Source: a virus (Duplodnaviria; Heunggongvirae; Uroviricota; Caudoviricetes). Taken from it: DNA of 22,032 bases. The notes below the pieces were generated by a model, which saw only the letters and a list, made by a program, of their open reading frames with translations, did no database searches and was not told the DNA's origin. Position numbers and translations under genes: made by a program. Positions 7,907-10,815 of the stretch are shown one piece after another; position 1 is the stretch's first letter; each line of letters starts with the position of its first letter. The stretch lies in IMG/VR virus record IMGVR_UViG_2740892235_000005; one strand, written 5' to 3'.

Positions 7907-8233
7907 TCATAACACCGTCGGACACCGCAAATCGTAAATCAGCACGGAAACAGAAAACGGCAGCTCCCCCTGAAGCAGTTCTTCCCGCTCCGCAAGATCC
8001 GGATTCCGGTACAGCATCCCGGTCAGCCGCATGGCAGCCCCCTTCATCCGGGTTAATGCCTCGCCCGGGATCAGTTCACCGTCCTCACGAATCACTTTAT
8101 CCCGGCTGCCCTGAATGTAGGCCAGCAGCACGGCGGTAGCCTGACGAACCTTGTCCATCAGCATGTCATCATCCGCGTCATGGTCGACACGCAGATGTGC
8201 CTTGATCTCTTCCAGTGTCAGTAATGCCGTCAT
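7907..8233 (-). CDS. gp6-like head-tail connector protein
   Basis: 108-aa ORF starting MTALLTLEEIKAHLRVDHDADDDML, typical of gp6-like connector proteins; immediately downstream of portal. Confidence 0.65.
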   Translation of the reverse strand: MTALLTLEEIKAHLRVDHDADDDMLMDKVRQATAVLLAYIQGSRDKVIREDGELIPGEALTRMKGAAMRLTGMLYRNPDLAEREELLQGELPFSVSVLIYDLRCPTVL

Positions 8234-10815
8234 TTTCCGCCTCCTGCATCCCGCCCACGTTTTGCAGCCAGGGTCCAGGCTGATGAATGAGCTTCTCCGG
8301 GTTTATCACCGGTCATACTGTTGCAGTGCCACAGCGAGCCCCCCCATGTCACTGTATCGCCGGGGTGGTAGGTTTCACCGGCTCTGAACACACCGCGGTA
8401 GAGCATCACCGGCAGGGAAAATGTTTTTTCCGTACGCTGACCGCTGCTCTGCCGGACCACCACAGAGAACAACCGTTCCCCCGTCATACTGACGTCAATA
8501 TCCGCCACCCCGTCAACCAGGCATTCCCATCCCCGCATCCCGTGCGTTTTTTCATACGCCCGCCAGAGTCCGCCCTGGTGTGTGGCATACGTGCCCCGGG
8601 GAAAGGATTTTTGATCGTCAATGGCGGGGAGTATTTCCAGTGCCGTGGCATCACGCCCGTCCTGCGGAGCCGGCAGGGCACTCACCGCATCCAGAACCGC
8701 CTTCTGCAGAACATCCGGATCGTAGTCTCGACCATCACGCGGAACAGGAATATGGCTTACCGCCTCCTTCACCATCTGCTCAAGCATCGGACGCACATCA
8801 TCGGGAGTGATACTTTTACCGTCTGCCGGCAGCGGAATATTTGCGACCGCATCATTCACCGCCTTCTGCAGAACATCGGGATCATAGTCACGACCGTCGC
8901 GCGGAACAGGAATATGGCTTACCGCCTCCTTCACCATCTGCTCAAGCATCGGACGCACATCATCGGGAGTGATACTTTTACCGTTCGCCGGTACAGGAAT
9001 ATTTGCGACCGCATCATTCACCGCCTTCTGCAGAACATCGGGATCATAGTCACGACCATCTCGCGGAACAGGGATATGGCTTACCGCCTCCTTCACCATC
9101 TGTTCAAGCATCGGACGCACATCATCCGGGGTGAGACTTTTACCGTCCGCTGGCTGTGGAATATTTGCGACCGCGTCATTCACCGCCTTCTGCAGTACTT
9201 CCGGATCGTAGTCACGACCGTCACGCGGAACAGGGATATGGCTTACCGCCTCCTTCACCATCTGCTCAAGCATCGGACGCACATCATCGCCCGTCACGCA
9301 CTTCTGTAATACCACAGACAGGGAAGCCAGTTTTTCTTCAAACGTTTGTGCCTGCACGGCTATTTTCCCCTCAAATGTGCGCTGTAAATCCGCCAGCACT
9401 GCGGAAAATTCTTCACCCAGCGCACGGATAATGGACAGTTCCCGTTCCGTCATTTTCGCAGTATCCCCCCTGAACATCGCTTTCACCGCATCATGCTCTG
9501 TTTCACTGATTGCCTTATTACCGTCAGATGCGCCGTCAGGCGGTTGCGCTAAGGCCGTTTTCCCGGTCGACGCGAACGGATCTTCACGGGCATCACGACG
9601 GGACAGCGCCTCCAGACTGTAGTTCTGCTGCTGAAGATACAGTGCATCACCGCCGGCCAGGGGCGGCAGGTTCTCCCGTTTACGGGCCTCATTGGGCGTG
9701 AGAAGCGTATTTTTCACCGCATCCCCCAGCGTTTTCATGCGCCGCTCACTGTCCATTCTCAGCAGCGTGGTGACATCAAATTCCGTACTCTCGTTTTCCC
9801 CCGTTTCCAGCGCCTCATCCAGTAACAGTTCAATGGACTCAATCAGCGTCTGCAGGCACTGGGAATAATACTGCTGCTCCAGCGCCTCCACATTGTCACT
9901 GGAAGGCGGTTGTCCCACGCCAATCTTGTAGGCCGGGACACGGAACACCGAACAGACAATTTCAGCGGTCATCTTCAGTTGTTCCACCGTCTGCGCATCC
10001 ACCGGTGAAAACGTCGTGGGGTTGTATTTTGCCCCGTTGCTCAGAATGGCCGTTTTCCCCGCATTTTCGCCTGTATACCCGCTGTCCCAGTTGCTCTTCA
10101 GTTTTTTCGCATTTTCTTCCGTAATACTGCCGGGGATCTCAATCACCCCGGACGGCCTGCCGCCATTTCTGAAAAAAGACGTCGAATTTTCCTGAATATG
10201 ATGCCCCTGCGTGGCCGCCAGCCCGGCGGCATACACCGGCGGCAACCCTATAAGCGGATGAAAAAAACAGTTAAACCGATCGTGGATCACTTCCCGGGCA
10301 GGCACCGTCACCGCCTCAGTGATCCCACAGTTCCGGTCCGGCGTGATGCGGTAGAACACCTCGCCGTCATCCGCCACCAGAGGTTCAACCCGGTTCCAGT
10401 CCAGAATACGCAGTTCTTTGATCTGCCCCCGGGCATTACGGATTTTCAGCACCACCGTATTGCCGTGACGCAGTTTGGCGTTCAGCCACAGTTCAAAAAA
10501 CTGAATGCGGTTCTGCTGCGCATTGGGGCGACGACAGAGGCGGGCAATATCCCCCCGGCGCGTTTCCCTGCGTATCCCATGCGCATCCGTCTGCATAAGA
10601 CGCAGCCGCATTTTGGCGATATCCTGGGATATCAGCGAAATACATGCAAACACCGCATGAAAGGAGAGGACGGCTTCAGGATCGGCTTTCACGCCCTGCT
10701 GCCAGGCGCCGGAAAAGGGCTCAGCCACCGCCTGAAACAGGCTGGTCCAGCCAGCCTCTCTTACGTCACGTCCTGATTTCTGGTTTTTTCGGGTTCGCCG
10801 TAAAAGGTTCCACAT
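8230..10815 (-). CDS. portal protein (lambda gpB / HK97 portal family) with about 390-aa C-terminal extension
   Basis: 861-aa ORF; first ~470 aa align to recalled lambda gpB blocks (LSFHAVFACISLIS; QFFELWLNAKLRHGN; FFRNGGRPSGVIEIPG; VDAQTVEQLKMTAEIVCSVFRVP). C-terminal part carries tandem 54-aa repeats plus a ~150-aa terminal domain. Confidence 0.85.
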   Translation of the reverse strand: MWNLLRRTRKNQKSGRDVREAGWTSLFQAVAEPFSGAWQQGVKADPEAVLSFHAVFACISLISQDIAKMRLRLMQTDAHGIRRETRRGDIARLCRRPNAQQNRIQFFELWLNAKLRHGNTVVLKIRNARGQIKELRILDWNRVEPLVADDGEVFYRITPDRNCGITEAVTVPAREVIHDRFNCFFHPLIGLPPVYAAGLAATQGHHIQENSTSFFRNGGRPSGVIEIPGSITEENAKKLKSNWDSGYTGENAGKTAILSNGAKYNPTTFSPVDAQTVEQLKMTAEIVCSVFRVPAYKIGVGQPPSSDNVEALEQQYYSQCLQTLIESIELLLDEALETGENESTEFDVTTLLRMDSERRMKTLGDAVKNTLLTPNEARKRENLPPLAGGDALYLQQQNYSLEALSRRDAREDPFASTGKTALAQPPDGASDGNKAISETEHDAVKAMFRGDTAKMTERELSIIRALGEEFSAVLADLQRTFEGKIAVQAQTFEEKLASLSVVLQKCVTGDDVRPMLEQMVKEAVSHIPVPRDGRDYDPEVLQKAVNDAVANIPQPADGKSLTPDDVRPMLEQMVKEAVSHIPVPRDGRDYDPDVLQKAVNDAVANIPVPANGKSITPDDVRPMLEQMVKEAVSHIPVPRDGRDYDPDVLQKAVNDAVANIPLPADGKSITPDDVRPMLEQMVKEAVSHIPVPRDGRDYDPDVLQKAVLDAVSALPAPQDGRDATALEILPAIDDQKSFPRGTYATHQGGLWRAYEKTHGMRGWECLVDGVADIDVSMTGERLFSVVVRQSSGQRTEKTFSLPVMLYRGVFRAGETYHPGDTVTWGGSLWHCNSMTGDKPGEAHSSAWTLAAKRGRDAGGGK
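8690..9300 (-). repeat. in-frame tandem DNA repeat, period 162 bp, about 3.8 copies, inside the portal gene
   Basis: Units begin at about 8699, 8861, 9023 and 9185 with few substitutions; they encode the repeat DDVRPMLEQMVKEAVSHIPVPRDGRDYDPDVLQKAVNDAVANIPxPADGKSITP. Confidence 0.9.

Follow-up and report, generated by a model that had tools for sequence, protein, structure and literature searches.

One extra G almost certainly joins an HK97-type portal gene to a normally separate fibre-like gene in lambdoid prophages of Escherichia coli

Among described phages, the closest relatives of the locus analysed here are the Shiga toxin (Stx) phages 2851, YYZ-2008, BP-4795 and 1717, which share 93–97% DNA identity and gene order with it, and in which a portal gene and the coding sequence that follows it are either fused (2851 and YYZ-2008) or split (ORF58 and ORF59 of BP-4795, gp59 and gp60 of 1717). 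Our locus lies in a 22,032-nucleotide (nt) stretch of DNA from a virus of the class Caudoviricetes (IMG/VR record IMGVR_UViG_2740892235_000005; hereafter the window) and takes the form of a single open reading frame (ORF) of 861 amino acids (aa). There is no biological difference between the window and these Stx phages: the window has the fused allele, in a version with four repeat units, and it is the database labels that differ. We conclude that the ORF is almost certainly a fusion of two genes that are normally separate in prophages, one encoding an HK97-type portal protein and the other a fibre-like protein, and that the two have been joined by one extra G (Table 1).

A search with the C-terminal part of the ORF identified stand-alone homologues of 245–382 aa, and every one whose sequence was inspected starts with MTERELS or MNERELS, at the equivalent of Met455 in the window ORF. 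In a metagenome contig with 61% identity (L002), a gene for a 450-aa portal (6652–8004) is followed by a 355-aa gene (8001–9068), and the same two-gene form is present in L003 and L004. An identical 4-nt overlap between the portal gene and the second gene is found in Shigella flexneri K-315, in an E. coli contig and in Salmonella phage FSL SP-016; in Rhizobium phage RHph_X2_26, 4 nt lie between the two genes. The split Stx phages encode products of 454 and 407 aa (1717) and of 454 and 461 aa (BP-4795). In a cross-species search for such loci, for which our alignment A3 proved too diverse and the narrower alignment A4 was used, we recovered 62 loci, ~48 of which, from different species of Proteobacteria, carry genes for TerL, an S78 protease::capsid fusion, the portal, the downstream protein and a gp6-like adaptor. 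In nearly all relatives the downstream gene overlaps or abuts the portal stop codon (as ATGA, TGATG or ATGnnTGA). The sole fusion among the cross-species loci is that of Brevundimonas sp. CEF1 (L184, 5447..7294), which has no obvious internal Met at the junction; a further protein, P0338 (1,237 aa), is another independent portal–fibre fusion with a different repeat motif, LPxPEPLPDI. Because the cross-species loci carry separate ORFs, comparison of these sequences indicates that the two-gene form is ancestral. A preliminary description of the window had treated the C-terminal part as an extension of the portal; the relatives show it, with few exceptions, to be a gene in its own right that is translationally coupled to the portal gene.

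The single-base nature of the fusion is evident from an alignment of the junction (A1), in which the window and phage 2851 read TTCAGGGGGGATACTG, L002 reads GGGAG, and L003 and L004 read GGGGA; tables of run length show that many E. coli alleles carry GGGGG at this place. The extra G sits 20 nt upstream of the ATGA stop/start overlap. In the allele with five Gs (G5) the portal ends ...FRGILRK*, with its stop codon overlapping the ATG of the downstream gene, and the change from G5 to six Gs (G6) therefore makes the portal frame continue into the frame of the downstream gene. In a sample of 120 stretches from IMG/VR, 61 loci were G5 and 36 were G6, and both genes were complete and intact at 29 and 18 of them, respectively. 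When 5,426 complete E. coli genomes were searched with allele-specific probes of 37–39 nt, the G6 probes matched at 49 and 1,338 places (1,387 in all, or ~1,390 fused copies) and the G5 probes at 482, 708 and 112 places (~1,300 split copies); G7 occurred at no place and G4 at three, the background for these two counts being ~2,050 GAG-type copies. G6 thus accounts for about half of the copies in E. coli lambdoid prophages, as a stable and common polymorphism, and it is also found in the deposited genomes of the Stx phages 2851 and YYZ-2008. It occurs on several haplotype backgrounds, with 17–30 differences per 500 nt from the nearest G5 allele, and one haplotype with identical 500-nt flanks exists in both the G5 and the G6 state.

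The existence of this last haplotype would fit a regulated switch, either by phase variation or by a programmed –1 slip at A_AAA_UGA that yields a minor fusion product and that G6 makes constitutive. The AAAATGA junction is common to the enterobacterial relatives, and, as we read the sequence, tRNA-Lys slipping by –1 there would shift translation into the downstream frame precisely at the ATG. We nevertheless consider such a switch very improbable. The A-rich context is missing outside the Enterobacterales, where the junctions are GCATGA, TGATG or ATGnnTGA and both relative frames occur, and because AAAATGA is restricted in this way a conserved frameshift site is unsupported; we therefore reject programmed frameshifting of the kind seen in lambda G/GT as a conserved mechanism. 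A tract of 5–6 Gs is, moreover, short for slipped-strand switching, and the many run-length variants expected of a phase-variable contingency locus were not seen in the probe counts, which consist essentially of G5 and G6. Because G7 is absent and G4 was found only three times, the G-tract is not hypermutable, and phase variation was likewise rejected as a conserved mechanism.

Table 1. Features of the fused ORF and of its neighbouring genes in the window.
Feature	Position	Strand	Remarks
Fused ORF, 861 aa	8230..10815	minus	RefSeq WP_001398586.1, named 'phage portal protein'
Portal part, aa 1–454, HK97 family	9454..10815	minus	Family models and alignment to solved portals
Portal C-terminal tail, aa 401–454	9454..9615	minus	Beyond the end of the HK97 portal alignment
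G6 run (C6 on the plus strand)	9465..9470	minus	Two-gene allele has G5
ATG of Met455, start of the separate downstream gene in relatives	9451..9453	minus	ATGA overlap with portal stop
N-terminal helical segment, aa 455–509	9289..9453	minus	Helix predicted by AlphaFold2 (AF2), residues 3–48 of the 407-aa protein
Four 54-aa (162-bp) units, aa 510–725	8641..9288	minus	Motif spacing and comparison of units
Conserved C-terminal beta domain, aa 726–861	8233..8640	minus	AF2 confidence (pLDDT) 92.5
CBM5/12-like (chitin-binding fold) sub-domain, ~aa 805–855	8251..8403	minus	Pfam match and structure comparison
gp6-like head-tail adaptor (Ad1) gene	7907..8233	minus	Start codon overlaps the fused-ORF stop codon as ATGA
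S78 prohead protease::major capsid protein fusion gene	11027..12964	minus	Upstream of portal; conserved module

An artefact of sequencing or assembly, whether a miscalled homopolymer as the source of the fusion or a mis-collapsed tandem repeat, has practically no standing as an explanation. The window, a scaffolded draft, contains two 10-N gaps (18795–18804 and 20546–20555), both of which lie outside the ORF region, and many database entries for the gene are partial because contigs break within the repeat. However, all 2,586 bases of the ORF are matched at 100% identity in seven complete genomes of E. coli, which include 00-3076, FORC_041, the O113:H21 strain FWSEC0010 and RM10466 (the last of these displayed at 4771 bits versus 4776); the G6 allele recurs at the many places counted above; and repeat numbers vary between alleles by whole 54-aa units only, with frames intact. 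The identical copies in complete genomes and the allele probes rule out both the miscall and the mis-collapsed repeat that the preliminary description had envisaged, and the in-frame fusion that it described is genuine. More broadly, a homologue of the ORF is present in 1,247 of the 5,426 complete E. coli genomes, and 93 phage records match it at 80–99% identity, most of them Stx1a, Stx2a and Stx2c phages that include 2851 (Pankowvirus) and YYZ-2008. The PHROG 2271 profile ('portal protein', 859 positions) matches the 861-aa protein from end to end.

The portal part belongs to a structurally well-described family. In Pfam, Phage_portal (PF04860) matches aa 54–382 with an E value of 6e-81 (272.5 bits against a cutoff of 39.1), and the portal_HK97 model TIGR01537 scores 350.4 bits against a cutoff of 112. 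Aa 43–423 align to residues 50–427 of the 431-residue chain of the solved portal 9lbn, and aa 45–400 to residues 53–409 of 424 in the solved HK97 portal 8cez; because solved HK97-family portals align to aa 43–423, we regard the portal as HK97-type. (In the literature, we found 9LBN only in a paper that treats it as the structure of a tail-tube protein.) The earlier assignment of the portal to a lambda-B/HK97 type thus holds for HK97 but not for lambda-B, since a Pfam scan of the whole protein at E ≤ 1 found no match to the lambda-B family (Phage_portal_2) and PF04860 was the only portal family to match. The portal is also shorter than the ~470 aa first proposed, and the remainder longer than the proposed ~390 aa, the two parts being 454 and 407 aa. 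Compared with HK97-family portals such as HK97 gp3 (8cez and 8fql), 9lbn gp1 and that of RcGTA (6tba), whose models aa 1–454 match and to the solved structures of which they align over nearly their full length, the window portal differs in three respects: its gene follows a protease::capsid fusion gene instead of preceding that for the protease, it has a ~50-aa extra tail, and in the G6 allele it reads on into the next gene. In the extra tail, a linker rich in Pro, Ser and Ala precedes a short segment that we read, from its sequence, as an amphipathic helix.

The most variable part of the downstream protein is its repeat region. Tandem Repeats Finder reported an array at 8696..9289 with a period of 162 base pairs (bp), 3.7 copies, 92% matches and a score of 1006, far above chance, and the four 54-aa repeats of the preliminary description are indeed present. 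Each is divided unequally, however, with the IPxPxxG motif spaced alternately 25 and 29 residues apart, and not into two halves of 27 aa. In the AF2 model, which is of low confidence here, each unit would form two helices (17 and 13 aa) with 12-residue loops that contain an IPxPxDGxD motif. Units 1–3 differ by only 2–4 residues, and the near identity that had been claimed for the DNA therefore holds for the protein but not for the DNA, in which units 1–3 are mutually 89–94% identical and unit 4 is 77–78% identical to them; because the units differ by 6–23% in DNA, a recent expansion is unsupported for this allele. Copy number is, as the preliminary description proposed, unstable across alleles. 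The downstream proteins in the IMG/VR sample have lengths of 245+54n aa (245, 299, 353, 407, 461, 515 and 569), corresponding on our reading to between one and seven 54-aa units; proteins of 353–461 aa occur in both allele classes, 245, 299 and 515 aa with G5 only, and 569 aa with G6 only, and a further set of alleles, of 405 aa, terminates two residues early. The 162-bp repeat both disrupts short-read assemblies and varies in copy number, and so is relevant to the typing of prophages of Shiga toxin-producing E. coli (STEC).

On either side of the repeats the protein is more uniform. The 407-residue part (44 kDa, acidic, pI 5.0) is modelled by AF2 as a long N-terminal helix, the helix–loop repeats and a confidently predicted beta domain. 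The terminal domain, put at ~150 aa and called rich in Trp, Gly and His in the preliminary description, is 136 aa long and contains 19 Gly, 5 Trp and 5 His. A Foldseek search with the whole model was swamped by floppy helices (TM score ~0.1), and the C-terminal domain was therefore modelled alone; its C-terminal sub-domain has the small beta fold of chitin-binding domains, and the ~80-aa beta sub-domain that precedes it is without a clear match. The carbohydrate-binding module (CBM) family CBM_5_12 (PF02839) matches aa 811–841, with an E value of 0.0018 and 18.7 bits, below the gathering cutoff of 26.2, and PF02839 is listed for many homologues in precomputed tables. The same tables list a Pfam family, PF28083, on the extension (in P0003, P0009 and others). 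A sequence search of solved structures with the 407-aa part gave nothing usable: its only matches were to a designed protein of helical repeats (E 0.014) and, over a short CBM-like stretch, to All3316 (E 0.54).

The gene that usually follows a portal gene encodes a minor head protein of the SPP1 gp7 or Mu gpF kind. This identity was rejected for the downstream protein, as no Phage_Mu_F domain was matched by Pfam on the 861-aa protein and NCBIfam gave nothing relevant for the stand-alone homologue P0120. The protein instead belongs to a large family, with 5,668 clusters at 50% identity that match with E ≤ 1e-3 and 637 at the stricter threshold of E ≤ 1e-30; its members are mostly stand-alone proteins of 250–600 aa. 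In P0234, P0185, P0194 and other distant homologues, the helix and the C-terminal domain are kept and the shaft consists of collagen triple-helix repeats; P0234, of 205 aa, is encoded directly after a portal gene. In P0247 the shaft is enlarged to ~20 units. At the other extreme, short homologues of 90–130 aa consist of the helix and the CBM5/12-like end (L181, L182, L190, L191, L193, L194 and L195, at ~6.8–7.2 kb in each locus), and their genes directly follow a stand-alone gene for a capsid protein or an S78 protease in elements of alpha- and beta-proteobacteria. To judge from their gene content, these elements may be small prophages or satellites; several appear, from their translations, to encode replication- or primase-type ATPases, and one an HNH-like protein.

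This build recalls several accessory fibres of phages, namely the phi29 head fibre gp8.5, T4 fibritin (wac), the collagen-like capsid protein gp12 of SPP1 and the neck passage structure of lactococcal phages, which combine an N-terminal anchor, a trimer-type shaft and a C-terminal globular domain. Those fibres are dispensable, and their genes lie among head or neck genes. No match of the downstream protein to any of them was found in sequence or fold; its shaft motif (a helix plus an IPxPxDGxD loop) and its C-terminal domain differ from theirs. CBM5/12 modules are otherwise familiar from the chitin-binding domains of ChiB, ChiC and ChiA1, and a CBM5/12-type end also occurs on phage tail fibres, as in the Agrobacterium phages 7-7-1 and Milano and in gp47 of Pseudomonas phage Pa193. 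The window protein shares with these the weak Pfam match; it differs in its sub-cutoff score and in the beta sub-domain that precedes the module, and its sugar binding is a prediction.

We lean towards the view that the product of the downstream gene (gene 2) is an external accessory fibre of the virion, and that the fused allele gives two products. The gene 2 protein would be a trimeric fibre on the surface of the head or neck, fixed there by its N-terminal helix, with a tip that binds glycans. The helix, the variable shaft, the swap to collagen in homologues and the short helix-plus-CBM versions encoded beside capsid or protease genes all support this view. The fused allele would yield a 95-kDa portal–fibre protein together with a free 44-kDa fibre that arises by internal initiation at Met455. 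Because the G-run doubles as the Shine–Dalgarno (SD) sequence of gene 2 and the ATG is retained, the G6 allele probably makes both. In particular, the G-run lies ~10–11 nt upstream of the internal ATG, and the calculated free energy of anti-SD pairing is –10.2 kcal/mol for G6 and –9.4 for G5, as compared with –5.8 for the portal start and –11.0 for the capsid gene. In the fused product the extra 407 residues would hang inside the capsid on a ~50-aa flexible linker of low complexity. Lambda C/Nu3, an example of in-frame nested phage genes, likewise gives a long product and a shorter C-terminal one, a likeness that holds if internal initiation at Met455 occurs. Unlike in lambda C/Nu3, the predicted nesting in the window would be the polymorphic by-product of a 1-nt insertion and not a fixed design.

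Several observations weigh against an external fibre with two products. The repeat region was predicted as a monomer, with a pLDDT of ~50, and our case for trimerisation derives only from the homologues with collagen repeats. The C-terminal domain is the best-conserved part of the protein across hosts (40–70% identity), which is unusual for a host-specific receptor-binding tip and more as expected of a conserved ligand. An SD-to-ATG spacing of 10–11 nt is longer than optimal, and ribosomes that read through from the portal may suppress internal initiation. Because the portal C-terminus is inside the capsid, the fused copies themselves cannot serve as external fibres. Our literature search found neither a description of the protein nor virion proteomics for 2851-type or BP-4795-type phages, nor any experiment or solved structure that would locate it in the virion. 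Finally, the independent fusions in L184 and P0338 would fit a protein that natively sits on the portal.

This last point leads to an alternative, which we consider unlikely, in which the downstream protein is a native internal head protein, its N-terminal helix docked on the portal's C-terminal tail at the crown. Four trimers on twelve tails are one example of the geometry, and G6 would simply exchange a non-covalent contact for a covalent one, with little change. At least three independent fusions (E. coli G6, Brevundimonas L184 and P0338) are what such a protein would predict, the more so as L184 lacks an obvious internal Met; fused and split alleles are of similar frequency, and deposited Stx phage genomes include the fused one; the C-terminal domain is strongly conserved across hosts, as a conserved ligand would require; the two genes are translationally coupled in nearly all relatives; and the portals bear the linker-plus-helix tail that extends past the HK97 alignment. 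The preliminary description, which correctly noted that portal C-termini face the capsid interior, as is established from solved HK97-type portals, had suggested an internal or ejected domain along these lines. We retain this as a minority possibility, since the architecture points more to an external fibre: a variable-length collagen or helix–loop shaft and a CBM5/12 tip are hallmarks of external phage fibres, and we know of no internal head protein of such a build. Furthermore, short versions are encoded beside capsid or protease genes with no adjacent portal detected, and fusions are rare outside E. coli (one in ~48 species loci and ~1–2 in 150 cluster representatives). Equally doubtful, in our estimation, is a trimeric CBM5/12 fibre of a hitherto unrecognised kind, tethered to the portal crown inside the capsid, whose attachment the G5/G6 polymorphism would switch from non-covalent to covalent, or a functional nested gene that supplies tethered copies as well as free ones.

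Selection on the downstream part bears on a different explanation, that G6 is a loss of function of a dispensable fibre. No free fibre would then be made, the portal would tolerate the added mass, and the allele would have spread by drift, hitch-hiking or recombination; the stf frameshift of laboratory lambda offers a comparison. A one-base indel is enough for such a loss because the portal gene and gene 2 overlap. The occurrence of G6 on several haplotypes is compatible with this explanation, heavily sampled STEC clones inflate the G6 count, and broken downstream ORFs are alike in the two classes (4 of 22 versus 5 of 34). However, the ratio of nonsynonymous to synonymous substitution rates (dN/dS) of the downstream part is 0.20 within G6, no higher than the 0.23 within G5, and is 0.21 between the classes, so that the downstream part is under equal purifying selection in both. 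The strong SD sequence and the ATG are also kept, and the near absence of other frame states (G7 and G4) indicates that the G6 state is specifically tolerated. We therefore regard loss of function as a rather improbable account of G6.

Databases already contain the fusion, misleadingly named, and it is undescribed in the literature that we could search. 1717 gp60, BP-4795 ORF59 and the homologues P0145–P0172 from Klebsiella, Salmonella and Enterobacter are named 'portal protein', 'putative prophage portal protein' or 'phage gp6-like head-tail connector protein', names that stem from annotation transfer from fused alleles and not from homology to the named proteins. The Klebsiella connector names had suggested a fusion to the downstream adaptor, a possibility we rejected: the sequences are plain fibre-like fragments, and P0214 is a frameshifted oddity. 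In Stx2a_WGPS8 the split form is annotated as a portal pseudogene, a label that reverses the polarity, because the two-gene form is ancestral. A large uncharacterised family is thus mislabelled as portal proteins or gp6-like head-tail connectors. In addition, Stx phages and related E. coli prophages present a natural polymorphism, ~50:50, of fused and separate genes, for which phages of both types have been deposited. A comparison of the two types could locate the protein in the virion and show how much mass a portal C-terminus tolerates, and could also show whether a glycan-binding fibre of the head or neck affects adsorption or persistence in the gut.

The genes around the fusion form a conserved module, in the order TerL, protease::major capsid protein (MCP), small ORF, portal, fibre gene and adaptor. 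In the main class of loci the downstream gene lies between the last head gene and the gp6-like adaptor gene; in a second class it also follows the last head gene, with no adaptor-like gene detected downstream. The neighbourhood did not single out a partner for the downstream protein among capsid, portal and adaptor, since conservation in the main class extends to the module as a whole. The protease::MCP protein is 645 aa long with the protease N-terminal, its gene lies upstream of the portal gene in the reverse of the HK97 order, and the arrangement is conserved in all relatives that have the fibre-like gene. In the window the small ORF, of 73 aa (10761..10982, minus strand), separates the capsid gene from the portal gene, the start of which it overlaps; the distant relatives L005, L006 and FSL SP-016 have a small gene, of 55–96 aa, at the same position.

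Elsewhere in the window, an apparent 288-bp tandem repeat (two copies, 96%; 20268..20833) flanks the N gap at 20546..20555. It is the 5' end of a lysis gene that appears from its sequence to be lysozyme-like (19961..20494, minus strand), duplicated across the gap, and is probably a scaffolding artefact and not biology. Two paralogous ORFs that resemble Rz-type spanins (17666..18139 and 19497..19982) share a long near-identical stretch and flank the other N gap (18795..18804), which breaks the ORF at 18536..19084; the scaffold may join or duplicate the lysis regions of two prophages. In the small terminase gene (14686..15315), a short 27-bp direct repeat (two copies, 77%; 14753..14806) lies close to the 3' end, where the Lys/Ala-rich C-terminal region is encoded, and looks trivial.

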